The notes below the pieces were generated by a model, which saw nothing but the letters and a program-made list of their open reading frames with translations, was not told the origin of the DNA and did no database searches. Positions 3,377 to 33,749 of a DNA stretch of 34,645 nucleotides are shown one piece after another. The position numbers and the translations under genes are program-made. This stretch comes from Chiloscyllium plagiosum (lineage: Eukaryota). Location of the stretch: positions 10,761,341 through 10,795,985 of the forward strand of contig NC_057719.1 in NCBI RefSeq assembly GCF_004010195.1. Direction: 5' to 3'. Positions within the stretch are counted from its first letter, which is position 1. Each line of letters opens with the position of its first letter.

Positions 3377-3377
3377 G

Positions 3378-4833: not shown

Positions 4834-4975
4834 GATTGAGGCTCCTTCCTAATGAAGGGCTTTTGCCTGAAAGGTCGATTCTCCTGTTCCTCGGATGTTG
4901 CCTGACCTGCTGTGCTTTTCCAGCACCACACTTTTTGACTCTGATCTCCAGCATCTGCAGTCCTCACTTTCACCT
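4834..4975 (+). mobile_element. PLE family A mini-element (hammerhead terminus) inserted in the PLE-B terminus
   Basis: TSD aggtttattt(g/a)gaag (4819-4833 / 4976-4990); core CTAATGA-A-GGGC-tttt-GCCT-GAAA-GG-TC (mutated). Confidence 0.85.
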
Positions 4976-5409
4976 AGGTTTATTTAGAAGCACTAGGTTT
5001 CAAGGCGCTGCCTCTTCATTAAGTGGTTGTGCAGCAGGACCATAAGCCACAGAATTTAGAGCAAAAGGATTACAGTGTCATGGAGCTGTAATGACATATT
5101 AAACAAATTTAGATTAAGTCTTTCATTTTTTTAGAATGCGATGCGCTAGTTTCGGCTCTATAACATGTAAATCCCAGAACTCCTGTTCAGTTACATTCTC
5201 AAGATAGCTTCAGCTTTTCTAACAATAGGTGTCATCTCAGCTCAGACAATGCTTTAAAGGTGTGAGGTTAAAGTTTGTCTGTGCATCAATTTTCAGTCAG
5301 ACTGATTCTATTTCTCAAGTGGGACTTACAGACTTTTACATGGATTTATGCAGTTTTTGAGCAAAATAAAACATAATTCTGCAAATACAAATTCACCCCA
5401 TAAACTTAT

Positions 5410-5672
5410 ATGTGTGCACGTGCAGGAGAGACAGAGTGAGTGTGTGCATGTGGTGTGAGTGCATGTGAGTGCATCTGAACAAGTATGTATACATGTGTGT
5501 GTAAGCTTGGTCAAGTATGTGTCTGAGGATGATAGGGTATAAGCCTGTGAGAGGGTATGTGCGTGGGTGTGAGTATGGTGACTGCATGTGTGTGAATATG
5601 AGAGAGAGCTTGTGTATAAGTGTGTGTATGTGTGTGTGTGTGTGTCTGTCTGTGTGTGTGTCTGTGTATTGT
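5410..5672. repeat. Degenerate (GT)n/(GA)n tract within the PLE-B 3' region
   Basis: Directly visible; an equivalent tract lies at 21295-21550 in the other PLE-B copy. Confidence 0.9.
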
Positions 5673-5777
5673 GTAGTGGGGTCACCTGTTCTGTGACATG
5701 AACCCAAGGTTCCGGTTGAGCCCATTTCCATGGGAACTGAACTTAGCTATCAGCCTCTGCTTGGCCACTTTGCATTG

Positions 5778-5915
5778 CTGAAGAAGGGCTTATGCCCGAA
5801 ACGTCGATTCTCCTGTTCCCTGGATGCTGCCTGAAGAAGGGCTTATGCCCGAAACGTCGATTCTCCTGTTCCCTGGATGCTGCCTGACCTGCTGCGCTTT
5901 TCCAGCAACACATTC
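5778..5915 (+). mobile_element. PLE family A mini-element with a perfect 53-bp tandem duplication of the hammerhead core
   Basis: Units 5778-5830 and 5831-5883 are identical (CTGAAGA-A-GGGC-ttat-GCCC-GAAA-CG-TC); perfect 16-bp TSD ccactttgcattgctg (5765-5780 / 5916-5931). Confidence 0.92.
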
Positions 5916-6789
5916 CCACTTTGCATTGCTGCTTTTCCCGAAGTCCGCCTTGGAGAACGGTCACCCGAAGGTCCGAGGCCGAATGTCCCGGACCGCTGAA
6001 ATGCTCCCCTACCTGGTGATTGTTGTGTGGTGTCCATTTGTCCATTGTCATAGCGTCTATTCGTTCTCATCAATGTACCATGCCTTAGGATATCCCTGCC
6101 TACGCTGGCCGAATCACGAGTGCCTGCCGTGTACACTGTGGGTGGTGTCCACACGTGTAACGGTGGTATCTGTGTCGACACTCTGACACGTCTTGCAGTA
6201 GTTGCCGTGACAGAGTTGTACAGTGTTGTGGTTGATGTTGTCCTGAAGGCTGGGCAGTTTGCTGCGAACAATCATTTGTTTAAAGTTTAGTGGTTGTTTA
6301 AAGGCGAGGCGTGGAGGTGTAGGGAAGGTCTTGGCGAGATGCTCATCCTGATCGATAATGTATTGCAGGCCGCGAAAAACATGGTGCAGTTTTTTGGCTC
6401 CCGGGAAGGACTGGACAACGAAGGATACAGCCCGAGTCTGTCTCCTGAGGAGGTCATTCTGGTTTCTCGCTGTGGCACATCAGAACTGGTGGTCGATGAG
6501 TTGAGAGTTATACCCTGTTCTTATGAGGGCATCCTTGAGCACTTTCAGACGTCCATCATGTTCCTCCTGATCAGAACAGATCCTGTGTATGCGTAGGATT
6601 TGTCTGTAGGGGTTGGCAGTTTTAATATGTTTCAGGTGGAAGCTAGAGAAGTGTAGCATTGTGATGTTACACAGGGTTAATTAATTACACAGCAATTGTT
6701 GAATGTCACTTCAGTAAAAAATGATAGTTCTGAGCTAAAATGTAGATATGAAGAGTTAAAGTAAATAAAGCTGAAACTAAAATTAGTCT

Positions 6790-7990
6790 TTATTATTGCA
6801 GGAGTCTGGTTGCCTTGCTTGAGGAAATTTTTCTCAAATAGTTGTGCTCCAGAACTTACTGGTCCCCAGGCCAAGCTGTCCCGGTACAGTTACAGTTACA
6901 ACACTGGCTTCTTCCTGGCAATGTGGAAAATTGCCCAGATATGTCCTTTTTACAAAAAGCAGGAACAACTTAATCTGGCCAACTATCACACCATCAGTTT
7001 ACTCTCAGTCATCAGAAAAGTGATTGAAGATGTCATTAATAGTGTTATTAAGCAGTACCTGCTCAAAGACACCCAGTCCAGGTGCACTCAGCTCCGGACC
7101 CTATTATAGCCTTAGTCCAAATCAAGAGCTGAACAGAGAAGTTGAGGTGAGAGTGACTGCCCTTGACATCAAGGCTACATTCAACCTTGCAAAACTGGAC
7201 TCAATGGGAATTAGAAGGAAGACTCTCTGCTGGTTGAAGATATACCTGTCACATAGGAAGATGGTTGTGATTGTTGGAGGTCATCCATCTCAGCTCCAGG
7301 ACTTCCTTATTGGAGTTCCTCAGGGCAGTGTCCTAGGTCCAACCAATGACCTTCCCTCTATCATAAGGTCAGAATTGGGGATATTTGTCGATGATTACAC
7401 AATGTTCAGCACCATTTATGACTCCTTAGGTACTGAAGGAGTCCACATCTCTTTGCAGTGAGATCTGGACTGACAAGTGACAAGTACCATTTGCACTATA
7501 TAAGTGAGAGGCAACGATCATCTTCAAATAGAGAGAATCTAACCATTGCCCTTGGCATTAAATGGCAGTACAATCACTGAATCGCCCACTAACAACATCC
7601 TGAGGGTTAACTTTGACCAGAAACGCAACTGGACTAGCCATATAAATACTGTGACTGTCGGAGCACGTTAGAGGTCAGGAACCCTGCAGCAGGTAGCTCA
7701 TCTCCTGATTCACTAAGGCTTTCCACCATCTACAAGGTATAAGTCAGGAGTGTGCTGGAATACACCCCACTTGCCTGGTTGGGTGCACCCCCCAATGACA
7801 CTCAGGAACCTTGACACCTTCCAGGACAAAGCAGGCCACTGATTGGCACTACATCCACAAATGTTCATTCCTTCCACCATCAATGCTCAGCATTCATCCA
7901 GGCTCCTTAGACAGCACCTTCCAAACTCACGGACACTACCATCTTGAAGGACAGGAGCAGCAGATACCTGGGAACACCACCACCTCCAAC
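6790..7990 (+). mobile_element. LINE-X reverse transcriptase remnant (frameshifted)
   Basis: WKIAQICPFYKK..ANYHTISLLSVIRKVIE, ALDIKATF, GVPQGSVLGP and FVDD are non-LTR RT motifs. Confidence 0.9.
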
Positions 7991-8021
7991 TACACTTTCA
8001 TGACAGTAATTTTGCCTGTGA

Positions 8022-8120
8022 CAAACATAGAGATTGCTGGAAGAACTCAGCAGGTCTGGCAGCATCTGTGGAGAGAAATCAGAGTTAATGCTTTTAGTCC
8101 AGTGACCCTTCCTCAGAACT
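8022..8120 (-). mobile_element. PLE-type family C terminus with degenerate hammerhead
   Basis: Minus strand gttCTGAGGA-A-GGGTC-actg-GACT-AAAA-gcattaactctg...tctccacagatgctgccagacctgctgag. Confidence 0.7.
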
Positions 8121-8689
8121 TTGCCTGTCTGGTGATGATTGGACAGTACAAATGCTGATCTGTTACTTTTACAAATTTCAACCCAACCATTTTTTAACTT
8201 CAGCTCCCTCTTCAGAAATGAAAATATCTGCCAGAGTCAGCATGTCTAATGTGCACGATTACAGTTAATTAATGTTCATTCTTGAGTATCCAAGCACAGA
8301 ATAAAGGATGCAATATCACTTCTAGATCCTGGAGCAGATACAGGTTTAGCTGTTCTGCTGAAAGCAGCACAATTGAGTGTTTTATAAGTCTAATATTATA
8401 TAAACTGGAATGGATTCACAAGTTGTTACATAAATGCAGGGTTGAAGAGTGAGATGACTTTGCAAAATATTATTGCCTTGTTGAAGAACTGTCCTTTCCA
8501 TTGCAATTATTTAAAGTGCAGTTTTATTTCTGATCAGCTTAATATCAGAACGATAGAATCATTCTCACACAGAAGGAAGCCATTTGGTCAATTGTTGCCC
8601 CTGCTGGTTCATATCAGGAGCAATTCATGGACTGGCCCTCCCCCCCCACCCTCTCCTCATATCATAGAAATATTTGTGGCACAGAAGGA

Positions 8690-9245
8690 GGCCACACTGT
8701 CATCACTGTCCAACAACCAGAACCATCTTCCTATGTGACAGGTATGACTCCAAGCAGCAGAGAGTTTTCCTTCTAATTCCTGAAGAAGGGCTCATGCCCG
8801 AAACGTTGATTCTTTTGCTCCTTGGATGCTGCCTGACCTGCTGCGCTTTTCCAGCAACACATTTCCAGCTCTGATCTCCAGCATCTGCAGTCCAAACTTT
8901 CTCCTTGATGTCAAGGGTAGCCACTCTCACCTCAACCTCTCTGTTCAGCTCTTGATTTGGACTAAGGCTATAATAGGGTCGGGAGCCAAGTGGACCTTGC
9001 AGAACCAAAACTGAGTGTCTCTGAGCAGGTGCTGCTTGATAGCACTGTTAATGACACCTTCTATCACTTTACTAATGACTGCGAGTAAACTGGTAGTGTG
9101 ATGACCGGGCAGATTGAATTTGTCCTACGTTTTGTAAAAAGGACATATCTGGGCAGTTTTCACATTGCCAGGAAGAAGCCAGTGTTGTAACTATACCGGA
9201 ACAGCATGGCCTGGGGAGCAGTAAGTTCTGGAACACAGGTGTTCT
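8690..9245 (-). mobile_element. Inverted duplicate of the LINE-X RT segment (about 6845-7280)
   Basis: Shares the exact string gaccctattatagccttagtccaaatcaagagctgaacagaga with the + copy; both ORFs read PYYSLSPNQELNREVEVRV. Confidence 0.85.
8775..8904 (+). mobile_element. PLE family A mini-element with near-intact hammerhead core
   Basis: CTGAAGA(8780-8786)-A-GGGC-tcat-GCCC-GAAA-CG-TT, followed by the family A tail ending ctttctcc. Confidence 0.85.
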
Positions 9246-9276
9246 TGGACTTCAGATGCAAATCCTGACAACCTTT

Positions 9277-9590
9277 AGATTAGATTAGATTACATTACAG
9301 TGTGGAAACAGGCCCTTTGGCCCAACAAGTCCACACCGACCCGCCGAAGCGCAAACCACCCATACCCATACATTTACCCCTTACCTAACACTACGGACAA
9401 TTTAGCATGGCCAATTCACCTGACCTGCACATCTTTGGACTGTGGGAGGAAACCAGAGCACCCGGAGGAAACCCACGCAGACACGGGGAGAATGTGCAAA
9501 CTCCACACAGTCAGTCGCCTGAGGTGGGAATTGAACCCGTGTCTTTGGTGCTGTGAGGCAGCAGTGCTAACCACTGTGCCACCGTGCTAC
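9277..9590 (-). mobile_element. HE1-type V-SINE
   Basis: A box TGGCACAGTGG, B box GGTTCAATTCC, V-domain and (tctaa)n tail. Confidence 0.92.
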
Positions 9591-9602
9591 CCTATAAATA
9601 GG

Positions 9603-9735
9603 GGCCGAGAGTGTACTGCTGATTCCTGATGAAGGGCTTATGCCCAAAACGTCAATTCTCCTGCTCCTTGGATGCTGCCTGACCTGCACACACTCTTGAC
9701 TCTGATCGCCAGCATCTGCAGCCCTCACTTTCTCC
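9603..9735 (+). mobile_element. PLE family A mini-element
   Basis: CTGATGA(9626-9632)-A-GGGC-ttat-GCCC-AAAA-CG-TC; a short inverted remnant lies upstream and aaatagg occurs on both flanks. Confidence 0.8.
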
Positions 9736-10184
9736 AACCTTCAAATAGGTTCAGGGTTTCTGCCTCTATCACCTTTCCAGACTGTGAGTTCCAGACTTCT
9801 ACCATACTCTGACTGAAAAACACTTCCACTCATCTCCCCTCTAAATTCATTTATCAATCACTTTGAGTCTCTGTCATCCAGTCCCTGACCCCTCTACTAA
9901 GTGAAATAACCCCTCCCACCCACTGCCCAGGTCCCTTACAACCTTAGATTCTAAATCCAATCTCTCCTCAGCTTCCTCTGCTCCAAGGAGGTCAACCCCA
10001 GGGCATTGATTCTTTCACCAATGCATTTTTCTAGTCCTGACCACATCCTTATTAATCTCCTCTGAACCCTCACCGAGTGGAGTTACATCCATTCTATTGT
10101 GAGGTTAACTAGAAATGCACACAGTTCTGGCCTAACTGGTATTTTATACAGTTCCAGGCTAACGTTCCTGCTCCAATTTTCTAT

Positions 10185-10395
10185 TTTTCATTCATTTGTG
10201 GGATATGAGTCAGTATTTAATGCCCGACCCTAGTTACCTTTGAGAAGGTGAGCTACCCTATTACACCGTTACAGTCCATGTGCTGTAGGTAGACCCAGAA
10301 TGCTCTTAGGGAGGGAATTCCAGGACTTTGACCTAGTGGCGGTGAAGGAACGGTGATATATTTTCAAGTCAGGATGGTGAGTGGCTTGGAGGGGA
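10185..10395 (-). mobile_element. LINE-X 3' tail
   Basis: Homologous to 958-1190. Confidence 0.75.
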
Positions 10396-11563
10396 ACTGG
10401 CAGTTGGTGGTGTTCTGTGCCTTAGTTAACAGAGGAGATTCCATATTCTTAACTATCTTATCAACTTGTCCCACTACTTTCAGGAAAAGTTTGGACAGAA
10501 GCTCAAAGCCTCTGACTTCCTCAACAGGTCGCAGTGTCCTCTTATCTATTCTGGATATCTTTGCCTTCTTTGACGTCCAAATGCATTGACTCAGATGTCT
10601 CTATACTGAGTTCCTTTTGCTACTTCTCTACCTGCCTGTCCAGTCCAATGTTAATTTCCTGCAGTCTTTGGACCACGATATCTGTTGTTGGATTCAGTGC
10701 TAACTTGGACAGACATGTTCTCTGGAATTCAATAATGTTGCTCTCTCCATTTTTTTCACATTGAAACTATCCTACTTAATAGTGGGGTAGTTAAAACCTC
10801 CTCCTATTATTGTCCTGCTGTTTTTACATTTCTCAGTTATTTACCCATATATCCACACCTCTATCACTCTGTGACCTTTTTGGCGATCTATGGTACAGTC
10901 CGAGTTGTGTAACCTCCCCTTGATATATTCCTTGGTTCAATCCATTTGACCTCATTTGCTGAGCCTTCCAACACCCTCCTCATGACTCTCATTGTTGCTT
11001 TGACCAAAGCCATCACCCACCCCTTTCTTTTTAATTCCCTTTGCTATTGCATCTAAAAACCCTGTAATTAGGAACCCTGAGCTATTATTCCTGTCCCTCT
11101 TTAAGCCGTTCCTGTTTTAGTTGTGATATCAAATTGCCAAGGTTCAATCTGTGCCCTCATCCCACTTGCTTTACTCGCTCATCTCCACAACTTGACCTAA
11201 ACATCCTGACAAACTCTTTCTCTTTATTCTCTAGCCTTTCTTTCCTCTACCTTCCAAACTCACTCGCATAATTTTCTGCCTTCCGTTTTCATTTCCCATT
11301 TTGTTTTATCTGAACTTACACTCCATTTCCCATTTCCTGAGTTCAAACCCTGCCCAACAGTATTAGCAAACCCTTCCCCCCCACCCTGCCATGACATTTG
11401 GCCAGGGCAAGGTGACAGGCTGCAAACATACTCAATTTGCACAGACCACACATCCCTAAAGCAGGTCCCAATGTACTAGGAATCTAAAACCCCTTTTTTC
11501 TTGCACCATGTCTCAAGCCACATCTTCATCTGCTTGATCCGGTGATATTTATGGCAATAGGAA

Positions 11564-12327
11564 AAGGAGAGGGTGGATCCTGTTGAGCGGTTCCCTGGGC
11601 AGACTGTCAAAGTCATTTGGCAGAATGTCTCATCGCCAGACATGGCTTGGCTGGTGGTGAAAAGGGCTCTGCCTGTGAGATCCTTTATGCACGCCCGGAC
11701 TCTCAGCCACACCACATGCTGCCCTCGAAGCGGCTGTGGGGGGGGACAAGATGGTCACACACCTCCTTCTGGAATGTGCCTGTGCAGAAGAAGTCTGGAG
11801 AGGAACGCAGTGGTGTTTGTCGAGGTTCGTCCCGAATAGCTCCGTGACACGGGACTCCGTGCTCTATGGTCTGTTCCCTGGGACGCACACTGAGACGAAC
11901 ATCAACTGTGCCTGGAGGATCATCAACTCAGTCAAAGACGCTCTTTGGTCTGTCCGAGACCTGTTGATCTTCCAGCTGAAGGAGTTGACCCCGACTGAGT
12001 GTTGCAGACTGGCACTTTCCAAGGTCCAGGACTACATGTTGAGGGTTGCACTGAAGGTTGGGGCAGCTGCCGCCAACGCACGGTGGGGAAAGACCACCGA
12101 GTAAGGTCTGCCCACCAAAGAAGAACAGGGGGCCCACTCAGCCATTGGGCTCCACTGACGCCTCAGCTAAATACCTGGGTGGTCACCATACAGACTTGTA
12201 TATATGAATGATTAATTCCGGTCTCTGTATGTAAAGAAATGGAATGTATACATATCTATGGCATCACCAATTGTATAGATATCAAAATAATTATATGAAT
12301 AAAGTATATTTTTGAAATTAAAAAAAA
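11564..12327 (+). mobile_element. Tx1/L1-clade LINE 3' end (zf-RVT region, 3'UTR, polyA)
   Basis: MAWLVVKRALPV...CPRSGC/VTHLLLECACAEEVW zinc knuckle with a frameshift in the G run; stop at 12104; AATAAA at ~12298 plus A tract; TSD ttatggcaat(a/g)ggaa (11549-11563 / 12328-12342). Confidence 0.88.
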
Positions 12328-12853
12328 TTATGGCAATGGGAATAATGTGGAACTTATTACCATTGAGGCTTTTTACTCTTTTTCATAATTCCTTAAACTC
12401 AACCCTCAGGACCTCACCTCTTTCTTTACCTATTCTGATGATATCAAGATGCATCACAATCTCTGGCACCAAGGTGCATCAAGATACAGGCAACTTTCCA
12501 TTGGACAGCCATTGAACCTGATACCAAGGAGACAATATACATTTATGGATTCATGTCTGTGGCCAAAAAAATGTGCATTGGCAGAATTCCTGATCACAAT
12601 TACTCTTGCAGTCTTCTTTGTACTTCAGTTTAGCACAGCTGGACTTACACTGGCTGCAACTCCCAGTCGCTTGCATCAGAATTCCTAACGGAATGTTGGC
12701 TAGGGAATGGGATACGTTCATGTAACTCCTGCAGTATCGATAGTAAATGCTGGCCCAGCCAGCGATGCCCAGGTTCCACCTGTGAGTTTAAAAAGACTTG
12801 ATTAGTTCTGGTTTAAATATTATAACTTCTCATATTTAGATGTGGTTAAATAT

Positions 12854-13870
12854 CAGTGGTAAGCATAATGCACTCTCCCTTGAGTCAATAGATTATGGTT
12901 ACAAACTCAATGAGTGATGATACCATTGTTTTCAGGGTTGTAGTTTGTCATTTTTTTAATGAAGAAAGGTTGAGACAGAGGTACAGAGCAGTCTGTTCCA
13001 AAGCCAATAAAGTGAGGTCTTGGAATTTTTATTTTAATGTTGGAACAATAGAAGCAGCCTGAATGGGTGGGGTCAAGCTCCCACAGAAACAGGAAATTTT
13101 AGCTTTAGTTCTCTGCAGTTGCTGGGATCTTGATGCTGGATGTGGAAGCTATTATTACTCTCTCTGTTACAGCTGAAATCTGGGATTCTCATCCTGCTGC
13201 TAGAACTGCATGTGAGACTATCTATTTTACTGAATTTGCCTTTGCCCAGGGTATGTTTAAAGGATGTTACTATATTGGAACAGTTAATTAGTGGTAGTTA
13301 ATATACATATTATTTTGTTTAGCATTTTGATAGAGTTTCACTTAAGCCAATTCATTTATTTTCTCTTTATTTTGTCTGTATTTTAACTGTGTGTACAAAT
13401 AGTGTGAGTCATGTCTAAAGTCAAGTAGTTTGACCAGTTGAATTGCATTGGAATACAATGAATTACATTTAATTTAAAATAAGAACAAATTATAGTCAAG
13501 ACTATCTTCTTAATATATTTTGAGGGTGTTTGGTCTGGTTCATAACCTTGAGTGTAAGATCAAGGTTGATGCAACAATACATTATGGAGGGAGTGCTGCA
13601 TTGTTAGATGTGCTGAATATCAGATTCGGCATTAAACTGAGGCTCTGTCCCCACTTGTCATTGGTAGATGTAAACATTCCATGGCACTCTTTTGAAGAAT
13701 AACAGAGGAGTTCTTCCTCATGTGCTTGTTAATGGAGAATCTGTCCATAATCACAGTGCGGTTTGTAGGACCTTGTAGTTCATAACATAGCCTCTGCATT
13801 CTCTATCTTACAATGTTATGGGTTGTACAACATTCTTTAGAAAATGTTATACAAAAGCAAGTTTTCTCCT
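12854..13870 (+). mobile_element. Deu-domain SINE (SacSINE1/AmnSINE1-like) split by a solo LTR
   Basis: Head at 12854-12910; body 13547-13870 with gagggagtgctgcattgt...ccatggcactcttttgaagaa (Deu-domain hallmark) and the tail gttatacaaaagcaagttt. Confidence 0.75.
12913..13546 (+). mobile_element. Putative Gypsy-type solo LTR
   Basis: Ends (a)GTGATGA ... TCATAAC are imperfect inverted termini; cleanly interrupts a SINE; termini resemble those of the LTR at 20671-24749. Confidence 0.55.
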
Positions 13871-15935: not shown

Positions 15936-15989
15936 AAATTGTCATGACTGAACTCTCCCTGAAAACGTCAGATGATGTATCACCAAACT

Positions 15990-16388
15990 TAGAGCATTAA
16001 CACTGCATTTCTCCCCACAGATGCTGCCAGACCTGTGGAGTTTCTCCAGTAATTTCCATTCCTATTTCAGATTTCCAGCATCCGCAATTCTTTATTTTAC
16101 TTTAGTCAGACTGTGGTCGCTGTTCTTGAAGCAGAGCAGACTGGGTGGGGTGGGGTGAGGGCAGGGTGGGGAGCATGATTGAGATGATTAAAATCATGAG
16201 GGGCAGAGATAGGGTAGTCAGGAAGGATTCACTAAATAAAAAATGAAAGAACTGCCAGTGATGGAAATCAGAAACAAACACAAAAATTGCTGGAAAAGTT
16301 CTACAGGTCAGGCAGCATCTGTGGAGAGAAATCAGAGTTAACTCTTCAGGCCAGAAATGTTAACACAGACCTGCTAAGCTTTTCCAGG
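15990..16388. mobile_element. Two family C PLE-type termini (15990-16100 +; 16240-16388 fold-back remnant) around a short CR1 piece
   Basis: tctccccacagatgctgccagacctg and its reverse complement; gttaac...gttaac at the apex of the second. Confidence 0.65.
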
Positions 16389-16394
16389 AAAAAT

Positions 16395-17410: not shown

Positions 17411-18742
17411 TCTCCTCAATTTTCAGCCTTTTGTCACTGGAGATCTTTGGAAAGGCTACTTCAGTTTTGCCTGTCACAATGGGGCCTCATCTATCGACTT
17501 ACTGAGTAGCTCCCTTCCTCCTGCTTCTAAGACTTGCTTCACCTCGGGGGTAACACATTTCTGACCCCTGCAGTGGTACAGCAGCCAACAAATCGAAGAG
17601 TGACAGACCTGAGCTCGATCCTTATGGCTGGCTCAATCAATGGTGACGCAATTCTCTCTGAAAAGTCCAGGAACATTCAGACAGGCTGATCTCCACTGGA
17701 GACCAACCCCTTACATTCCTTCCAACATAATCCTTGCATCTGATCCCAAATGTGGGGCAGTCAAGTTTTTCTCTGACTTGAGAAACTCAGACAAGTTTCT
17801 GATGGAAATGTCGTGACCTTGTGTGGCACCCCTCTTGTAACTGAGTTCAGAACTGGGAGCTATACACTTGGCTTCACTTTGAAGTGAAGTCAGACTCATT
17901 TGCTGAATACACAATTTCTTCTGAGTTGTCTGGTTATGAAACACTTAAATCGATAAGCTGTGAACTGCAGCCTCCTAGCTTTCTGACGGTCTCATTGTTT
18001 TTGACATCTGACAGTAATTGAAATCACTACCCTTCATCCGATTGCCGTGAGCAGCAGTTAACATAGAAAATGCCTAATGTCTTCCAAAACAAAACAATAA
18101 TTTGATTAGCTTCAGTTGAAACATCGCTTTCCCAAGTCTCAATCTTACAGATATACTGGGCTTCTTAGATGCCTTAGATTTTCAAGACACCTGTCGATCA
18201 CAAATCAAACACAAAAGTACAAAAAGCTTCTTTACTGGACACTGGGGAGAATATTTGCTTTTGTCACATGTCTCTTTCAACAACCAAGGAACTGACTGAC
18301 TCATTTCTTTCACTTGTTTGCCAGAACCATTAGCTCCCTTGCTCAGACTGACCGGCCTGAATAATTCTGTCAAGTCTTTTAACAAGATGTAATGCAATGT
18401 TCCCAGCTATCACCCTTGCTATGATCAGCAACTCCATAGCACACCAATCGCTCAGTCTAGACAGTTTTATTGCATCTGGACATGACTAACTGACAGTGCA
18501 TAATACATTTGAGCAAGCTGGAATTAGCATCAATAAACATAAGGTTTGCAATCACTGCACAGAATGCTGTCTCATTCCTGTATAACCACATCCCATCAAC
18601 GGCAACACTTCTCCTTCAATTAGCCTCCTCTATCCTTTATGGATGCAGTAACTATACCTCTCATTGCTTTCTACTTTCAAGTGAGCAAAAGGTAGAGTCA
18701 TAGAGTCAGACAACATGGAAACAGACCCTTTGGTCCAATCAG

Positions 18743-18855
18743 GATTTAGGTCAGAGTGGTGCTGGAAAAGCACAGCAGGTCAGGCAGCATCCGAGGAGCA
18801 GGCAAATCGACGTTTCAGGCAAAAACCCTTCATCAGGAATCTTTTGCCACTTTTG
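18743..18855 (-). mobile_element. PLE family A mini-element
   Basis: 16-bp TSD cctttggt(c/t)caatcag (18727-18742 / 18856-18871); minus-strand core CTGATGA-A-GGGT-tttt-GCCT-GAAA-CG-TC. Confidence 0.88.
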
Positions 18856-18885
18856 CCTTTGGTTCAATCAGCCTATGCCAACCAT

Positions 18886-19207
18886 GGGGTGGCATGGTGG
18901 TTCAGTGGTTAGCACTGCTGCCTCACAGCGCCAGGGACCCGGGTTCAATTCCAGCCTCAGGTGACTGTCTGTGTGGAGTTTGTACATTTTCCCTGTGTCT
19001 GCGTGGGTTTCCTCCGGGTGCTCCGGTTTCCTCCCACAGTCCAAAGATGTACAAGGTTAGGTGAATTGGTCATGCTAAGTTGACCCATAGAGTTAGGTGC
19101 ATTAGTCAGGGGGAATGGGTCTGGGTGGGTTACTCTTCGGAGGGTCGGTGTGGACTAGTTGGACCAAAAAGCCTGTTTTCACACTGTAGGGAATCTAATC
19201 TAATCTA
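18886..19207 (+). mobile_element. HE1-type V-SINE
   Basis: A box TGGTTCAGTGG, B box GGTTCAATTCC, V-domain and (aatct)n tail. Confidence 0.92.
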
Positions 19208-19246
19208 TAATCCCAAACTGAACTCGTCCCACCTGCCTGCTCCTGG

Positions 19247-19428
19247 TCTATGAGACAGTAAGGACTGCAGATGATAGAAGTTCGAGTCAATAGATATGAA
19301 GCTGGAAGAGTACAGCAGATCAGACAGCACCCGGGGAGCAGGAAAGTCAAGGTTTCAGGCTGAAATCCTTTGTCAGGTTTTGGCCTGAAACGTTGATGCT
19401 CCTGCTCTTCGGATGCTCTGACCTTCTT
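19247..19428. mobile_element. Older family A-like fold-back mini-element
   Basis: TSD tgctcctgg (19238-19246 / 19429-19437); minus arm followed by plus arm cctgaaacgttgatgctcctgctc. Confidence 0.75.
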
Positions 19429-19884
19429 TGCTCCTGGCCCAAATCCCTCCAAACCTTTCCTATTCATGTACTTATCTATTCATGTACTTATTCATGTACT
19501 TAAACTGTTGTAACTATGCCTGCATCCGTGACTTCCTCTGGAAGTTCATTCCCTACGTGAACCACCCTCTGTGCAAAAAATATTGCCCCTCATGTCTTTT
19601 TTAAATCTCTCTCCTCTCGCCTTAAAAATATGCCTCCAGTCTTCAAATCACTCATCCTAGAGAAAATATACCTGCCATTGACCCTATCTATACCCCTCAT
19701 GATTTTGTAAAACTCAATAACCTCCTAACCTCCATTAAAAAATGTCCCAGCGTTTCCAGCCTCTCCTTATAACTCCAATGTTCCATACCATACAACATCC
19801 TGGTAAATCTTTTCTGAACCCTCTCTCGCTTAATAATATCCTTCCTATAATAGGCTGACCAGAACTGGATGCAGTATTCCAGAG

Positions 19885-20215: not shown

Positions 20216-20841
20216 TCAAAAAGGCACATAAGGAGTGTGAGCCTAGTGGCTCACAATCTTTAGCCTGAGTCAGACTCCTTGCCTAACAGCACTGTGATTG
20301 GACAAAGACTGCAGCAGTTCAAAAAGACAGCTCAGCACCACCCTCTGCAGGGCAACTAGGGATGGGCGTTACATGCTGACCTAGCCAGTGACTCCATATT
20401 CCATGAATATATAAAAAAGAAACATTTGTGTGTTCCAGTCCCATTCCAGAGATGAGATAGGGCAACATCTAGGCTGATACCACAATATAGTGCTGAGGGA
20501 GTGTTGTACTGTTGGTGGCACTGTTTTCAGATTAGTTATTAAACTGAAAATCTGTCTGTGCTTGTTAACAAACACCAAGACAATCCTGGCAATATTGATC
20601 CTTCAACAAACATCAGTAAACCTGGTCACCATCACATTAGCTGTTCCTTAGGACGTTCCTCTGTACAAACTGTTACGATCCCAGTTGACCCCACTATTGG
20701 ACAAGTCAGATTCAACAAATGAAATCTGGCTTAATAGATCATGTTTTATTTACTGTTGTGATCTGTCACGATTTTATGAAACATAAGCACTCCAGGCTAC
20801 AGAGATGGTTTTAACAAAACAGGAGTGAATTACCTAAAAAA

Positions 20842-22925
20842 AAGTTAAAAATCACACAACACTGGGTTATAGTCCAACAGGTTAATTTGGAAGCACCAGC
20901 TTTCGGAGCGCTATTCCTTCATCAGGTGGTTGTAGAATAGAATCATATGATACAGAATTTAAAGCAACAGGATTGCGGTGTCATGGAATAAGATGTTAAA
21001 CAAATTTAGTTGGAGTCTTTCATCTTTCAAAGTGACCATGTTAGTTTTTATTTCTTTATATATAAATCCCAGAACTTTTTTAAAGTTACATTCTCAAAAT
21101 AACGAACAATAGCCAACATCTCAGCTCAGATAATACATTGAAGGTGTGAAGTTAAAGCCTGTCTGTGTCCCAATGTTAGGTCAGACTGATTCTATTTCTA
21201 AAGTAGGATTTACAGAATTTTACATGGATTTATGCAGTTTTTGAGCAAAATAAAATGTAAATCAGCAAATACAAATTTACCCCACAAACTTATATGTCTG
21301 TGTGTTCAGGGAGACCGAGTAAATGTGTGCATGTGGGTGTGTGTGGGGGTGTATGAGTGTCTGTGAACGAGTGTGTGTATGTGTGTGAGTGCAATGGGGT
21401 ATAAGTCTGTGAGAGGGTGCGTGTGTGGGCATGAGTGTGGGGGGTGTATATGTGTGAACATATGAGAGAGAGATTGTGTATGAGAGATGGTGTATGGATC
21501 TGTAGGGATGTGTGTGTGTACGTGCACTTGTGTGCATGTGTATGAGAGAGTGGATATTGCAATGGGGTCATCTGGAGTCTGACATGAACACAAGGTAATC
21601 CGAAGTTCCAAGGCTGAATGTCACGGAGCGCTGAAATGCTCCCTGTCTGGGAGGGAACACTCCTGCCAGGTTGATTGTTATGTGGCGTCCATTCATCCAT
21701 TGCTGTAGCCTAAGCTTGGTCTCACCAATGTACCATGCCTCTGGGCATCCCTGCCTGCAGCATACGAGACAGATAACATTGGTCAAGTCACGAGTACCTG
21801 CTATGTACAAATTGGGTGGTGTCTCCATAGGTAATGGTGCTATCCATGTTGACACTCTGAAATATCTTGCGGTTGCTGCCATAGCAGGGTTGTACAGTGT
21901 TGTGGTCAATGTTGTCCTGAAGGCTGGACAGTTGACTGCAAATAATCTTCTGTTTAAGGTTTGACAATTGTTTAAAGGTAAAACGTGGAGGCGTAGGGAA
22001 GATCTTGGTGAGGTACTCATCCTCATTGGTAAGGTGTTGCAGGCTGCGAAGAACATGGCGTAGTTTTTTGGCTCCTGGGAATTATTGGACAAACCACGCA
22101 ATATTCTTCACAGCCTGCAACATATTATTGATGAGGATGAGCACCTCACCAAGACCCTCCCTATGCTTCAATTTCTTGACTTTAAACAAGCACCAAACCT
22201 CAAACAGATCATTGTTCGCAGCAAACTGTCCAGCCTTCAGGATAACATCGATGACAACACCATACAATGCTGAAATGGCAACCACTGCAAGATATGTCAG
22301 AGTGTTGACACAGATACCACCATTACCTGTAGGGAGACCACCCCACCGTGTACGTGACAGATACTCATGTGACTTGGCCAACTTTGTCTACGGTGTCCCC
22401 ACTTGAATGTACACTCTCTCATACACACACACACACAAGTTTGTGGAGTAAATTTGTACTTGCTGATTTACATTTTATTTTGCTCAAAACTGCATAAATC
22501 CATTTTTAAAATCTATAAATCCTACTTTAGAAATAGAATCAGTCTGACCTAACAGTGGGACACAGACAGACTTTAACTTCACACCTTCAATATATTATCT
22601 GAGCTGAGATGGTGCCTATTGCTAAAAGCTATCTTGAGAATGTAACTTTATAAAGTTCTGGGATTTATATATGAAGGAACCAAAACTAACATGGTCATTT
22701 TGGAAGATGAAAGACTCAAGCTAAATTTCTTTAATATTACATCCCATGACACTGCAATCCTGTTGCTATAAATTCTGTGTCATATGATTCTGCTCCACAA
22801 CCACCTGATGAAGGAGCAGCGCTCTGAAGGCTAGTGCTTCCAAATAAACCTGTTGGACTAAAACCTGGTGTTGTGTGATTTTAACTTTGTCCACTTCAGT
22901 CCAACACTGGCATCTCCAAATCATG
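20842..22925. mobile_element. PLE family B fold-back (inverted) element with GIY-YIG remnant
   Basis: TSD acctaaaaaa (20832-20841 / 22926-22935); NVICLVCCRQGCPEAWYIGETKLRLQQWMNGR on the minus arm; arms invert at ~22065-22091; hammerhead motifs at ~20895-20928 (-) and 22802-22836 (+). Confidence 0.9.
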
Positions 22926-22973
22926 ACCTAAAAAATAAACTAAAATAAAAGAAACCAAGCTACATATACAGAT

Positions 22974-23452
22974 TACGAAAAAGGTTTACCAGGATGTTGC
23001 CTGGTACAGGGGGTTTTAGCTCTGAGGAAAGGGTGGATAGACTGAGTTTGTTTTCACTGGATTGCAGAAGGTTGAGGGGCAACCTGATAGAAGTTTATAA
23101 GATTGTGAGTGGCATGTATAGAGTGGAAAGTATGAGACTTTTTCCCAGGGTAGAAGGGTCAATCACTGGGGGACACAGGTTCAAGGTGGTGGGGGATGTT
23201 TAAAAGAGACGTGCAAGGCATGTTTTTCACACAAAGGGTGGTGAGTGCCTGGACTGCGCTGCCAGAGGAGGTGTTGGAAGCAGATACAATAGCAGCGTTC
23301 AGGAAGCACCTGGACGAATACATGAATAGGAAGGGAATAGAGGGATATGGATCCTGTAAGTGAAGATTGTTTTAGAATGGAAGGGCAAAATGTGTCAACA
23401 CAGGCTTGTAGGGCCGAATAGCCTGTTCCTGTGCTGTATTGTTCTTTGTTCT
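22974..23452 (+). mobile_element. CR1 3' end
   Basis: RLSLFSLDCRRLRGNLIEVYKIV; tail tgttctttgttct. Confidence 0.9.
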
Positions 23453-23958
23453 TCCTATAACACATTTTAATAGATTTTAAAACACACAGTAAAATAAAAT
23501 CCCATCTGCTCCCAACACCATCACTTTACAGTTAATAAAAATTCAGAGGAACGTTCCTTCCCCATCCGAGTAATAGCTTTAAATTAACTGCTTCTTCTCA
23601 ATACCACTCCCATGAGCTTGGCAGACTTTTCCCTTGACTACTTACACAACTGAGAGCTTAGACGTTCATAGACTTTTATGAATTAGCAGTTGTAACCAAA
23701 TATCTCGGGTCTGGAAATTTTCACAAACAAGGACCTTTACACTAAGATAAATTATTCCCTTAACTGCACTGGATAATTTCCATTTCTAGGAGAATCTATT
23801 TAGCCTGGACATTTGTACTGAACTCAGAAATATTTAACTAAATGGGAAAAAATGCTCTTTTTTTTGCAAAGTTAATAACTTAATATTTTTCCTTCTCCTG
23901 TTGTAAAACTCCACAATATAAACAAACTTCAGTTGACTTACTGTAACATCGTCAGTCA

Positions 23959-24573
23959 TAAAGTCATACAGTCCTACAGCATGGAGACAGGCCCTTTGGC
24001 CCAAACTGGTCCGTGCTGACCAAAATGTCCATCCACACTAACCCCACTTCCCTACACTTGGCCCATATCCAGCTAACCTTTTCCTATCCATGTATTTGTC
24101 CAAATGCCTTGTAAATGTTGTTAATGTACCCGCCTCAACCACTTCCGCTGGCAGCTCATTCCATATGCGTACCACCCTATGTGTAAAAAACTTGCCCCTC
24201 TGGTTCCCTTTCATTTTTTCCCTTCTAACCTTAAATTAAAACCTCTAGTCCTCGATTCCTCAACCCTGGGAAAAAGACTGAGTGCATTCACCCTATCCAT
24301 GCCTCTCATGATCTTATACACCTCTGTAAGAACCTCCCTCAGTCTCCTATGCTCTGAAGAAAAAAGTCCTAGCTTGTCCAACCTCTCCCCATAACTCAAA
24401 CCATTGAGTCCAGGCAACATCCTTGTAAATTTCTTCTACACTCTTTCCAGTTTAGTAGCATCGTCCCTGTAGCAAGGTGACCAAAACTGAACACGATATT
24501 CCAAGTGCGGCCTCACCAGCGTCTTGTACAACTGCAACATAACTTCCCAACTTCTGTACTCAGTGTACCGATA
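23959..24573 (-). mobile_element. CR1 3' end
   Basis: ERLDKLGLFSSEHRRLREVLTEVYKIMRG; TSD cagtca (23953-23958 / 24574-24579). Confidence 0.9.
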
Positions 24574-24790
24574 CAGTCAGGTACTGTCTGATACACACAG
24601 CTTTAAGTCATGGAAATAGAGAGACTGACATTGTTAATTATTAAACTCCTTCACACAAATAGACCAAATCCTTAAGCCACTAGTTTAAAAACCAAACTCT
24701 AAAAAACAAATGATAATAATACATTAAAAATCACACACCTTTCATCACAAAATTAGCGGGCATGTTTCTGACATTACAAGTCTGATTACG

Positions 24791-24874
24791 GGTGGAATCT
24801 TACCAGGGTCTGAGTGACGTGAGCTATGGCAAGGTTTGTGGCAGAACCGGATGAGAGATCTGGTAAGGTCCACC
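24791..24874. mobile_element. Tiny TIR element (possible Harbinger-type MITE)
   Basis: ggtggaatcttaccag ... ctggtaaggtccacc, ~15-bp imperfect inverted repeats. Confidence 0.4.
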
Positions 24875-24965
24875 TTGATTTTGGGAGCACCTCCCTTCCT
24901 CTTTTATGCTTTTCGCACGCTGCATGGCAGGTTTGTTTGTGAGGCAGAGGTGAGTTGCCAATTAA

Positions 24966-25058
24966 CCTTCATGTTAACCACAGCTATTGCAGGTATTGAA
25001 CCCACTCCGTTGGCATCTCTCTACATCGTGAACCAACCACCCAGCCAACTGAGCTAAC
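24966..25058 (-). mobile_element. tRNA-derived SINE head
   Basis: A box TAGCTCAGTTGG (25045-25056) and B box GGTTCAATACC (24992-25002); no convincing cloverleaf. Confidence 0.6.
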
Positions 25059-25059
25059 A

Positions 25060-25881
25060 AAAAGATGGTCCAGGTTAGCAAAGAATACAGACAGATCTTG
25101 ATCAATTGGGTCAATGGGCTGAGGAGTGGTAGATGGAGTTTAATTTGGATAAATGAGAGGTATTGTATTTCGGTAAAACAAAATGGACAGGATGTATGCA
25201 AGTAAAAGTAGACTCCTTGGGTGGTGTTGTAGAACAGAGAGATCTAGAAGTTCAGGTACATAATTCTTTAAAGTTTGCATCACACATAGACATGGTGTTT
25301 AGCATTCTTGCCTTCATTGTCCAGACCTTCGATTGCAGCAGTTGGATTGTCATGTTGAAGTTGTAAAGTCTGGAGTACTGCGTGCAGTTCTGGTCACCCT
25401 GTTATAGGAAGGACATTACTAAGCTGGAGAGAGTTCAGATAAGATTTACCAGGATGTTGCAGGGAATAGAGGGCTCGAGTTAGAGGCAGAGGTCGGATAA
25501 GTTGGGACTTTTTCCACTGAAGCATAGGAGATTAAGAGGTGACCTTGTAGAGGTCTATAAAATCATGAGGGGTATAGATAAGGTGAATAGCAGGTGTCTT
25601 TTTCCTAGGGTGGGGGATTTCAAGAGAAAGGGGCATATTTAAGGTGAGAGAGAAAGACTTAAAAATGACATGGAGGCAATTTTTTTACACAGAGAGTAGT
25701 TTGTGTGTGGAATTAGCTTCTAGATGAAATGGTAGATGTGGGTACAGTTGCAACATTTAAAAGACATTTGGATAAGTACACATTAAGAAATGTTTGGAGG
25801 GATAGAGCCAAGCGCAGGCAAGAGGGACTAGTTTAGTTTGGTATGGATTGGTTGGATCGAAGGGTCTGTTTCCATGCTGTA
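25060..25881 (+). mobile_element. CR1/HER1-like 3' portion (decayed)
   Basis: tggtagatggagtttaat, gagtactgcgtgcagttctgg, gaccttgtagaggtctataaaatcatgagggg. Confidence 0.9.
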
Positions 25882-26699
25882 GGGTTAGGGTGTCAGCAGC
25901 AATAATCAGGAGAGATGGTGGAATTGGGGAAAGGACGGGGTCGGAGTGGTATTGGTGTTAATGTAGATATGTGAGAAGGAGTTCAGAAGCTGCGCTTCGC
26001 TGTTCTATGTTCAAAAACTAAGTAAGAAGCATCTGATAGCCACCATCAAGCAAGTACATGAAGGGCATTAAAGGATTAAAATCAAATTGCTCATGCTGAT
26101 GAGTTTAGATTTTTTAACCTTGACTAATGTGGGATAATCAATCAAGGAACTCACAGCACTCTGTTTATAGGGTCAAAGGGTCTGAAATGAAACTCTGATA
26201 GTGACTTGTTGCCCTCCCTGAGACTTACATTACAGATCCAGTGTACTGCCCTTGCAAGGTGTCACAAGGCCAGAAAGTAATACTATTGATACTGTGGCTG
26301 CATTTCAGATGGTCTTTGTGTTGAAATTCCTTTCTGCTCATGCACAACCTTGATCAGTTTACAGCAGCCCCTCTGAGCAATGAGATTAGATTACAGCCTG
26401 GAAGTCAATCTCCACCGCTGGCGATTTATTATGAGAAATATACCTCTATTTGTGTGGAGTGGTGGATGTTTCTCTGCTGTGTTTTTTTTTGTTTCACTTT
26501 GTGCCATGAAGGCAATTTCTGTTTATTGAAATAGAGAAGGAACAAAATCTCAAGCTCAGTAGGTCAGACAGAGAATAAATCGGGGTGGGGAGGGGGGAGA
26601 CTTCCTACTGTTTGATTCTGGGACACAGGCTACAAATATTGAATTTTGTTTTAAAGATGTGAGAAATGTAGCCTATCTCTGGTTATTAGTAATCTCAAA

Positions 26700-27062
26700 C
26701 ATTCGTGCTCTCCACCACTGAAGCTCACTAGAAGCAATGTGCACAAGATGCTCTGCTGATATTCACAAAGTCTCCTTGGACAGCACCTTCCAAAGCCACA
26801 ACCACTACCTTCTAGAAGGACAAGGGCAGCAGATACATGGGAACTCCACCCCCTGCAAGTTCCCCTCCAAGACACTAACCATCCTGACTTGAAAACACAT
26901 CACCGTTCCTTCACTGTCACTAAGTTAAAATCCTGGAACTCACACTCCAATAGCACTGTGGGTGTTCAAGTATATGACTCAGCACCACTTTCTCAAGGAC
27001 TGTAAGGGATGGAGAATAAACATTGGCCCAGCCAGTGCTCTCTGCAGTCCAAGAATGAATTA
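26700..27062 (+). mobile_element. LINE-X 3' end
   Basis: gacagcaccttccaaa...caccactttctcaagg...ggcccagccagtg...gaatgaat. Confidence 0.8.
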
Positions 27063-27339
27063 TATTCAGGGTAATATGTCTTGTCACCTTATAATGTGGA
27101 ATTACACATAATCTCAAGCTACACCAGGGTCCCCTTGCTGAAGGAAGTTAATGAAACAGATTTATGAATTCAAATTTATAGTGGATTTTGATCTTATGAC
27201 TTCTGGGTTACTGGAGCAGACCCAAAACTTTTAGACTATCACATCTAGTTTTTCATTGTGGCTTTACAATGAAAACATTGAAAACTAAAATTTAATAAAG
27301 TACGTTATTAGAACCTTACTGCTAAGATCCTGAAATTCT

Positions 27340-27960
27340 TCGCTTTTGCATAAGGTGTGAGCATCAGTGGCAAGTCCAGCATTTTCTGCCCCTGAACCAA
27401 GTGACTGGCTGGGCCATTTTAGAGGGTCAGCCCCCACATTATTCTGCTCTGTTGTCACATGATGTCCTATTGTAAAGTACATTAGTGAACTTTTTTTAAC
27501 AACAATGAATTTCAGTTGTCAAGATAAACATCACAGCACGGTGGCACAGTGGTTAGCACTGCTGCCTCACAGCGCCAGAAGCCTGGGTTCAATTCCCGCC
27601 TCAGGCAACTCCCTGTGTGGAGTTTGCAAATTCTCCCCGTGTCTGCGTGGGTTTCCTCCAGGTGCTCTGGCTTCCTCCCACAGTCCAGAAATGTGCAGGT
27701 TAGGTGAATTGGCCATGCTAAATTGCCTGTAGTGTTAGGTGTAGGGGAATGGGTCTGGGTGGGTTGTGGGTCGGTGTGGACTTGTTGGGCCAAAGGGCCT
27801 GCTTCCACACTGTAGGTAATATAATCATTGAGACAAAGTTTACATTCCAGATTTATCCATTGAATTTAAATTAAAATAATGATGGGATTTGAACCCTTTC
27901 CTCCAGAGATTTAACTAAACCTCTGAGTTGCTAAATCCAGTGATGTTATCACTGTGCCAA
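27340..27960 (-). mobile_element. tRNA-SINE (LINE-X tail family) interrupted by HE1
   Basis: Homologous to 2073-2370; B box gggatttgaaccc at ~27884. Confidence 0.6.
27534..27826 (+). mobile_element. HE1-type V-SINE
   Basis: A box TGGCACAGTGG, B box GGTTCAATTCC and V-domain. Confidence 0.92.
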
Positions 27961-28954
27961 ATACCGAATGGCAAAGTTCCCCTTCTTTTTATCCTGAGGT
28001 GGTTCCCTGGTTCTCTTCTGAAATGGCCATTTCACTTGGTCCCACTTGGCTCAGCTGTGGACTATGCTGTCCTTGGCCTATTTCTGGATAACAGCTCCTC
28101 TTCTGTTACCTCATTTCAGCCCTGTGGCAGCTCTGGGGTCTGCTGCATGTTTTCAGAGCCAGCGCGTGGGCAGGCTAATGTACTCCTTCTAGGCTTACAT
28201 CAAGATGCGTTAAATGGCCGCATATTCCCATGCGTGCTTCAAGTGAGCAGATGGGATACCAGGCTTTGGTCTTTCTGCTCACCATAAGAATTTGGACACA
28301 ATATCAACAACGCAAAATAGGCAGCTTCTCACAAAACAGCCAGGAATATAATTGGAAGGGGGAAATGGAATGTTATACTGGGGGTGAGAGATGTTCTTCC
28401 AAATACAGCTACTGAGGATATTAACTCTTCATTGAGCATAGGCCAGGAATTGTCAATGTTGACTTTATGCACAAGATGTAGGGATGCTTCCAGTCTTTAT
28501 CCTTTTATCCTTTATCCAATGTTTATCCTTTCAACTTTATTTTTTTGTTAAAATTGGACAATGAATAACTGTAAGGTTATGTAACTTTTTTCTTCATTTC
28601 TCTATTTTGCATCTAAGATTTTGTACCGAGGTATTTGCATCTAAGGTGACACCGTGAGGAGCGACATTGTAAACGTTTCATTGTACTCCTGACAATAAAT
28701 ATGACAATAAATCTAATTCTAATTCTGCTCTGATATCATTGACACTCCTGGGTATACCATTCACCAAATACAATAGAAACACAATTGACTAGTCAGTATG
28801 CCGCATAATTACAAGTATTTCTTTTACTCTATCTTCCCCATTCTTTCTTCCTTCCCTTCTCTTTTTTCTCTCCCTCAACAAAATATGGAAGAAAGATGGA
28901 CAAGTGAAGTGGGTGAGTGCTACAGCAGTGGATAATAGACAGGGATTCCCATTG

Positions 28955-29155
28955 GTTTAGATCAGAGTGGTGCTGGAAAAGCACAGCAGGTCAGGCAGCA
29001 TCCGAGGAGCAGGAAAATCAGGAATCCTAATGAAGGGCTTTTGCCCAAAACATCGATTCTCCTGCTCCTCAGATGCTGCCTGACCTGCTGTGCTTTTCCA
29101 GCACCACTCTGATCTAAACTTTGGTTTCCAGCATCAGCAGTCCTCATTTTTGTCT
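28955..29155 (+). mobile_element. PLE family A fold-back mini-element (65-bp arms, hammerhead in loop)
   Basis: Arms 28955-29019 and 29055-29119 pair at 63/65; loop gaatc-CTAATGA-A-GGGC-tttt-GCCC-AAAA-CA-TC-gattc; TSD agggattccc (28941-28950 / 29156-29165). Confidence 0.9.
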
Positions 29156-29166
29156 AGGGATTCCCC

Positions 29167-29260
29167 TGATCAAAAACTATGGTGCTGGAAAAACACAGCC
29201 AGCCAGACAGCATCCGAGGAGCAGGAGAGTCGACGTTTCGAGCATAAGCTCGTAATCAGG
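29167..29260 (-). mobile_element. PLE family A mini-element variant
   Basis: Minus-strand core CTGATTA-C-GAGC-ttat-GCTC-GAAA-CG-TC. Confidence 0.8.
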
Positions 29261-33710: not shown

Positions 33711-33749
33711 TATTGTTCTGTATTGTGTACTAACTTATGCATAAATTGA

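Follow-up and report, generated by a model that had tools for sequence, protein, structure and literature searches.

What sets the 5' ends of the short, hammerhead ribozyme-bearing insertions found in a stretch of Chiloscyllium plagiosum DNA (contig NC_057719.1), and are they made by a Penelope-like element (PLE) or are they mobile elements in their own right? The stretch, 34,645 nt of repeat-rich vertebrate DNA that we refer to as the window, contains eight such insertions, here called minis m1 to m8. All match the terminus (34045..34177, minus strand) of a single PLE copy of the same family, family A, which also carries the remains of an open reading frame (ORF). A first-pass annotation had placed the eight insertions at the loci where we find them, and had read them either as copies truncated preferentially at the ribozyme fold or as a distinct, promoterless short interspersed nuclear element (SINE), akin to a retrozyme. 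In our analysis they look like a routine by-product of the PLE, not a separate SINE, and the distinct-SINE reading is disfavoured. We lean towards solo terminal-repeat insertions, made repeatedly by several subfamilies of a Neptune-like, endonuclease-bearing PLE. The type of element is already known, solo minimal PLE hammerheads having been published (PMC4209133). What is under-described is that the insertions stop at a fixed 5' edge; a literature search, which did not cover Repbase, Dfam or Lunse et al. 2016, returned no report of 5' ends piling up at stem I.

A fixed 5' edge at stem I

Positions are numbered with C3 of the hammerhead core CUGANGA as +1. The eight minis hold nine hammerhead units, m2 being composed of two (m2a and m2b), and the ORF-bearing copy adds a tenth. 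All nine mini units start between −7 and +4, an interval of 12 nt, confirming the sharp clustering at the core described earlier. Eight of them match the ORF-bearing copy exactly as far as −1 to −4, and the ninth as far as 0. Upstream of the core, exact identity extends for 4 nt in m3, m4, m5 and m8, 3 nt in m1, 2 nt in m7, 1 nt in m2b and m6, and 0 nt in m2a; when mismatches are tolerated, the match reaches −7 at most. Within the single m2 insertion, the stop at the stem I edge occurs twice. These 5' ends are real, since target site duplications (TSDs) or a known target directly adjoin them. The outer 5' edge of an insertion sometimes lies 20-75 nt from the core, which is due to an inverted arm (m4, m6 and m7), a partial tandem (m2) or 8-14 nt of filler (m1 and m5). 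The statement that the minis consist only of the terminus thus holds for the match itself, but not for these additions.

Assuming a constant stop rate, the probability that eight out of eight minis stop within a 12-nt interval is at most 5e-12, or 3e-10 if 60 such intervals are allowed for. Smooth 5' truncation was therefore rejected for this window, although PLE copies are generally 5'-truncated (PMC8557442, PMC8969392). Self-cleavage does no better as the source of the 5' ends and was likewise rejected: the cut site, after +28, lies inside every mini body, all of which keep the 28 nt upstream of it, even if two of the inverted arms end at the cut site. Ordinary truncation or ribozyme cleavage is, taken together, barely credible as the origin of the edge. 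As the cut site was copied through, the template must have been uncut at +28. Stalling of the reverse transcriptase (RT) in front of the hammerhead fold, which predicts starts near +30, was also rejected. A biased end on a PLE RNA, as proposed earlier, does fit the observations; a truncation caused by the fold does not, the RT having already copied the whole fold before stopping. An ORF starting within the mini was rejected too, as frames starting there stop early.

Each unit is a minimal type I hammerhead, with the core, one extra base, a 4-bp stem II, a GAAA and a palindromic 2-nt stem III loop, and the core motifs are present in all ten. Stem II is 97.5% paired over the ten units, with one compensatory pair. 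Stem I, in which −5 to −1 pair with +29 to +33, is weak (72.5% paired, four pairs around a mismatch). Pairing of the stems did not differ significantly from a shuffle control (18-143 of 500). The catalytic core is intact in four of the nine mini units (m2a, m2b, m3 and m5). No hammerhead match was obtained from Rfam, in which weak miRNA matches correspond to hairpin insertions, and folding of whole minis as monomers gave no notable z-score. A search with a 20-nt pattern returned 17 metagenome loci, all chance matches of 20-26 bp, and no viral loci.

The ORF-bearing copy

The copy lies on the minus strand, with a tail at about 34085-34045. In its hammerhead, stem I is formed by 34175-34171 with 34142-34138, the core begins at 34170 and the cut falls after 34143. 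Next to the terminus is the frameshifted 3' end of the PLE ORF (34178..34645, minus strand), which encodes a cysteine-rich linker and a GIY-YIG domain (PF01541, E 7.6e-5, 23.4 bits against a cut-off of 22.6) and runs off the end of the window. Among named proteins, those most closely related to the ORF at 34178-34645 belong to Chiloscyllium punctatum (84% and 78% across the GIY-YIG portion), the whale shark and the zebra shark. Homologues at 76-84% (P0002) include RT-region sequence, and P0008 combines RVT_1 with GIY-YIG. Upstream of the GIY-YIG domain, the ORF contains a CX2-5CxxC linker motif. Such a linker between the RT and the endonuclease defines the Neptune and Nematis clades (PMC8557442), and Neptune is the linker-bearing clade reported in vertebrates (bioRxiv 10.64898/2026.07.22.740005). 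By its linker and this reported occurrence the element would be Neptune-like, the window itself containing no RT. Family A shares with endonuclease-bearing PLEs the GIY-YIG domain, the minimal type I hammerhead, the optional tail, inverted 5' copies and a partial tandem.

Only 30 nt (34178-34200 region) separate the core from the last motif conserved in the ORF, against 360 nt in a zebra shark relative; homologues that read through have a long pyrimidine-rich 3' untranslated region (UTR), of 360 nt in P0006 and at least 90 nt in P0003. The short distance indicates that the ORF-bearing copy probably lacks most of its 3' UTR, probably through an internal deletion or a template jump.

This probable loss bears on the main rival reading, in which the minis are by-products of a longer RNA. 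The RT would fall off as soon as it entered the pyrimidine- or C-rich 3' UTR that borders stem I upstream, the end of the cDNA would fold back through the complementarity of stem I, or the element's own endonuclease would resolve the product at the ATT at −4. In relatives, the core is preceded by an extended 3' UTR of low complexity (360 nt in P0006), a region that appears to be skipped in the ORF-bearing copy, and family B, a PLE of the window with a different UTR, does not stop at its hammerhead. In m7 and in the sister family C, stem I is where inverted arms end, and the Anolis element PAc favours cutting ATT, its own pseudo-long terminal repeat (pLTR) junction included (PMC11167929). Against this, the weak stem I of family A offers no strong fold, four of the eight minis (m1, m2, m3 and m8) have no recognised arm, and contig depth over the ORF is flat over 450 nt (1.38 and 1.45 million for its halves in run X1), so that a block would need to be very local. 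We consider this alternative possible but unlikely.

The individual insertions

A BLAST search of the window with the terminus of the ORF-bearing copy returned all eight mini loci and no further family A copy, the other short matches belonging to family C. Measured between TSDs or target edges, the minis are about 93-200 bp in size; together they cover 1134 bp, or 3.3% of the window.

The tail-bearing m1 (4834..4975, plus strand) has its core at 4849, inactive through G5A, and an 8-nt filler at its 5' joint; it was inserted in the end of a family B PLE and is flanked by a TSD of 15 bp with one mismatch (4819-4833 and 4976-4990). The tailless m2 (5778..5915, plus strand) consists of two intact hammerhead units in partial tandem, with cores at 5778 and 5831. 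Its repeat is of 53 nt, the units are joined via a 5-nt microhomology with +53 to +57, and the second ends at a 3-nt microhomology with the target; the TSD is an exact 16 bp (5765-5780 and 5916-5931), of which 3 nt are in common with the element. Tail-bearing m3 (8776..8905, plus strand; intact core at 8780) has a 5-nt microhomology at its 5' joint and no TSD, and about 32 bp of its target, a CR1 long interspersed nuclear element, are replaced. Also tail-bearing, m4 (9603..9734, plus strand) has its core at 9626, with G12A, and a 15-nt internal deletion. Its inverted arm of about 18 nt is degenerate and was recognised by eye, the inverted-arm search not having detected it, and its TSD, of 7+7 bp, was later split by a tRNA-SINE at 9276-9594.

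On the minus strand, the tailless m5 (18743..18855) has an intact core at 18836, about 14 nt of filler that include an inverted 8-nt piece of stem II, and a TSD of 16 bp with one mismatch (18727-18742 and 18856-18871). The tail-bearing m6 (19249..19429, minus strand; core at 19376) is old, at 66-73% identity, and has an inverted 5' arm (40-nt arms, 78%) and a 10-bp TSD. The hairpin mini m7 (28955..29155, plus strand) has an inactive core at 29027 and an exact 10-bp TSD; its inverted arm, at 28955-29019, has no tail, is 97% complementary to 29055-29119 and has its inner end at +29, the first base past the cut site. Finally, the tailless m8 (29169..29263, minus strand; core at 29259 with G8U, and a compensatory change in stem II) has a 9-bp TSD and sits inside the right TSD of m7. 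Nesting provides relative ages: the tRNA-SINE at 9276-9594, which interrupts the left TSD of m4, came after m4, and m8 after m7 (29156-29270).

Joints, 3' ends and promoters

At their 5' joints, the minis show microhomology (m2, m3 and m8), short filler (m1 and m5) or inverted arms (m4, m6 and m7). The TSD scores of m1 (13), m2 (16), m5 (14) and m7 (10) are reached by only 1-4 of 400 random pairs, so that of the several TSDs claimed earlier these four are beyond chance. The 10-bp TSD of m6 and the 9-bp TSD of m8 are weak when taken alone, equalled by 25 and 45 of 400 random pairs, respectively; with m4, which falls within 25-45 of 400, three of the eight minis have a weak TSD and one, m3, has none.

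The 3' ends fall into two classes, near +125 with a tail in five minis and at +84 to +94 without a tail in m2, m5 and m8. In run X1, contig ends that are loose and have unlike flanks accumulate at +126 (n=864) and +125 (n=610), with an agreement of 0.34, and also at +82 (n=665), the latter partly from subfamily divergence. The two classes are the known PLE tail; they, the inverted arms, TSDs and microhomology joints are standard features of PLE insertion.

A pattern search of the sense strands of the eight minis revealed neither an A box nor a B box of pol III, the single B-box match being antisense, in m6; the same patterns do detect the tRNA-SINEs of the window. The term promoterless, used in the first-pass annotation, is therefore borne out for pol III, the type of promoter for which it was examined. 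In D. virilis Penelope, an internal pol II promoter lies in the pLTR (PMC2377424). The tRNA-headed SINE, of 300 bp and with A and B boxes, is present in five copies (3375-3673, 9276-9594, 18890-19207, 27535-27826 and 33405-33709).

Relationship of the minis to the long copy and to sister families

Apart from the two m2 units, the minis are 66-93% alike, while m2b is 98% and m3 92% identical to the ORF-bearing copy. With such a spread, and one unit nearly identical to the long copy, the minis are not one family. In a tree rooted on family C, calculated with one long copy and 83-129 columns, the long copy groups with m2b and m3 at 91/93. None of 200 bootstrap trees contains the minis as a monophyletic group, which is disfavoured but not rejected by the approximately unbiased (AU) test (p=0.06). 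The interleaving of minis with long copies that had been named as an argument against a separate SINE is thus seen in part.

Family C (8021-8117, 15972-16100, 16234-16390 and 33749-33945), a sister family only distantly related to family A, has a stem I that is longer and perfect. It also forms minis and hairpins, with and without tail, in the same layout despite its different sequence: the copy at 8021 begins at stem I, and the hairpin at 33785-33945 has the core as its loop. In the insertion at 33749-33945, the tail is present on the arm and absent from the body.

Family B (4782-6660, 20841-22100 and 22100-22888) is another PLE with a hammerhead, and its 3' UTR is long and CA-rich. It is present as long copies, including one head-to-head pair, and hosts m1 and m2. 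Two 149-bp copies of its hammerhead end, at 2364-2512 and 4968-5116, are 95% identical; the duplication postdates the insertion of m1, as the copy holds the last 8 nt of m1 and a changed TSD base.

Copies beyond the window

Contigs of run X1 and of run X12, from a second organism, were mapped at 80% likeness to 33990-34645 (104,999 and 116,593 contigs, respectively); contig depth is not copy number. Depth in the core bin is 8.8 (X1) and 5.3 (X12) times the mean of 21 ORF bins, and 4.4 and 2.9 times the ORF-bin maximum. All ten long pieces listed across the terminus, selected among 218,341, end at −3 to −7. In run X17 there are 34 contigs with unlike flanks beyond −3 (agreement 0.35). The excess of the terminus is 49-fold in X17, a run only guessed to be RNA and not used as evidence of expression. 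A separate tailless mini, with the core at its start, is exonised at the end of C. plagiosum FUBP3-like isoforms (P0044 and P0045), where its TSD appears as a repeated five-residue stretch; this may be an annotation artefact.

These copies bear on two alternatives in which the minis have a life of their own. In the first, minis would beget minis: copies transcribed within host transcripts or from their own pol II promoter would yield a discrete RNA of 95-130 nt. Self-cleavage would play no part in fixing its 5' end at stem I, which could arise, for instance, when an exonuclease trims the RNA as far as a folded, protein-bound hammerhead; the PLE protein would then mobilise this RNA in trans. 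This is the promoterless SINE of the first-pass annotation with another way of making the end. The 5' edge does fall on the base at which pairing in the ribozyme begins, among the contigs minis are far more numerous than ORF-bearing copies, internal RT initiation dispenses with a defined 3' end, and pLTR sequence alone can support trans mobilisation (PMC3846280). But the minis surround the ORF-bearing copy in the tree, each of several subfamilies has given rise to minis, no 5' flank has been transduced between TSD and core, pol III boxes are lacking on the sense strand, and the inverted arms differ from copy to copy, so the hairpin forms were not copied from a master. We judge this route rather improbable. 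Equally doubtful is the role it would give the hammerhead fold, as a non-cutting 5' boundary to which host transcripts are trimmed, or at which they start, the RNA of 95-130 nt then being re-inserted by the PLE protein via internal priming.

The second is a retrozyme independent of long terminal repeats (LTRs), in which head-to-tail arrays of 125-nt units would be cut by dimeric hammerheads, circularised and copied once round, the 5' edge being the unit junction. Head-to-tail joints exist, from 34169 to 34045 in at least eight X1 contigs, and a further one runs from 34174 to 34039. With its palindrome, stem III is well suited to cleavage as a dimer, and retrozymes related to PLE pLTRs have been reported in vertebrates including one chondrichthyan (bioRxiv 2026.07.22.740005). 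However, head-to-tail units are found in none of the eight window minis and are rare among the contigs (at least 8 among 104,999), and stem I would have only about two pairs at the observed junction. A circle also fits less well in that it would place a tail in front of tailless minis, and m2, m5 and m8 carry none before the core. We regard this origin as very improbable. The distinct ribozyme-headed SINE or retrozyme proposed at first is thus disfavoured by the nested long copy, the internal cut site, the rarity of tandems and the missing front tail.

A proposed origin of the minis

For solo insertions made by the PLE, the following sequence of events may be envisaged. The PLE protein would nick the target, and the RT would start inside the terminal repeat, at about +125 (giving the tail) or at +82 to +95 (tailless), as suggested by the 3' ends observed here and by the internal start known from Anolis PAc. 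The template RNA would not have been cut by the hammerhead, the cut site at +28 being copied through in all minis. Synthesis then stops on reaching the 5' strand of stem I, between −7 and +4 as observed, most likely because the RNA begins there: the RT, primed in the 5' pLTR of its own transcript, would run off. We consider it somewhat probable, as an inference, that the RNA ends at stem I and that such run-off follows after 90-130 nt. The end of the cDNA would then be sealed in one of several ways: microhomology with the target, a jump that returns it to the repeat (m2), short filler, or head-to-head joining to another cDNA or to itself. Head-to-head joining may be helped by the complementarity of stem I. 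All these kinds of joint are observed, whereas the route to them is deduced. Afterwards, the minis would be dead copies that decay. Family C, which likewise starts or folds back at stem I, supports this origin, as do the start of all nine units within 12 nt, the two classes of 3' ends, the likeness to PAc, the nested position of the ORF-bearing copy, the exonised mini that starts at its core, the depth excess of the terminus and the X17 contigs with unlike flanks.

Several observations weigh against it. An initiator-like motif does occur at −4, but it has five matches in the surrounding 81 nt and so is not distinctive. The start site of D. virilis Penelope lies about 120 nt upstream of the end of an intron that abuts helix I (PMC2377424, PMC4209133) and not at stem I, so the start-site reading is not taken over from Penelope. 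None of the four hammerhead-bearing ends of family B in the window stops at the hammerhead. With p=0.06 and a tree of so few columns and one long copy, mini monophyly stands unrejected. The depth step is no proof of a sharp edge genome-wide, given that the reference copy probably lacks its 3' UTR, with the result that copies ending inside the missing UTR would appear to stop at the edge, and that depth is not copy number. In X1 and X12, depth also falls by 29-49% from one side of the cut site to the other; this drop could include copies from cleaved RNA, but inverted arms, family C matches and CpG decay also produce it.

Relation to known systems and significance

Most minimal PLE hammerheads have been described as dispersed single elements, "probably related to truncated PLEs", with thousands of such motifs per genome in coelacanth and Xenopus (PMC4209133). 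The solo hammerheads of Cervera and de la Pena 2014 (PMC4209133) resemble the minis in being minimal type I, with an extra base before stem II, a palindromic stem III and opposite-strand pairs; in the part of that text covered there is no 5'-end mapping or stem I pile-up, and no shark is analysed. Insertion units of endonuclease-bearing PLEs consist of the pLTR, an optional tail, an inverted 5' copy and solo pLTRs (Arkhipova 2013, PMC3846280; Craig 2021, PMC8557442). As in the minis, the tail is 30-40 nt, the inverted arm is shorter than the body, joints are palindromic, TSDs are of 8-10 bp, and microhomology joints without TSD occur (PMC3846280, PMC8557442). The minis differ in that the ORF-less unit is the main product, its 5' edge is nearly fixed and TSDs reach 15-16 bp.

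In Anolis PAc (Frangieh 2024, PMC11167929), reverse transcription is initiated internally, at 111-118 nt of an ORF whose start is at the hammerhead. Internal starts about 115-120 nt past the core, two starts that give rise to the tail, an uncleaved RNA as template and extension of both target strands (PMC11167929) are points of likeness. PAc, however, belongs to the Poseidon clade and its ORF starts in the hammerhead, whereas family A has the Neptune/Nematis-type cysteine linker and frames that start in the minis soon reach a stop. Like the minis, metazoan non-LTR retrozymes (Cervera and de la Pena 2020, PMC7229834; Li et al. bioRxiv 2026.07.22.740005) are non-coding, carry a type I hammerhead, are related to PLE pLTRs, are presumed to be moved by PLE protein, and include dispersed monomers; they are defined by head-to-tail repeats and circular RNA, in contrast to the minis, dispersed monomers or hairpins in a fixed register. 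The hammerhead-bearing SINE-like repeats of Schistosoma, as summarised in PMC6765202, are likewise short and dispersed but have a promoter ahead of the hammerhead; in the minis nothing precedes it, and pol III boxes were not detected on the sense strand.

The function of the hammerhead in PLEs has been stated to be an open question (PMC8557442), its cleavage is dispensable in vitro (PMC11167929), and regeneration of the pLTR is another open question (PMC2377424). If the hammerhead fold were a non-cutting boundary, the minis would be a self-renewing, SINE-like class free of pol III and PLE hammerheads would have a non-catalytic job. With the commonest insertion stopping at the stem I edge, upstream of a site that was not cut, the genome would hold thousands of natural read-outs of an RNA start or an RT stop; and if the RNA starts at stem I, the 5' repeat of a full-length element would be regenerated precisely, as with a true LTR.

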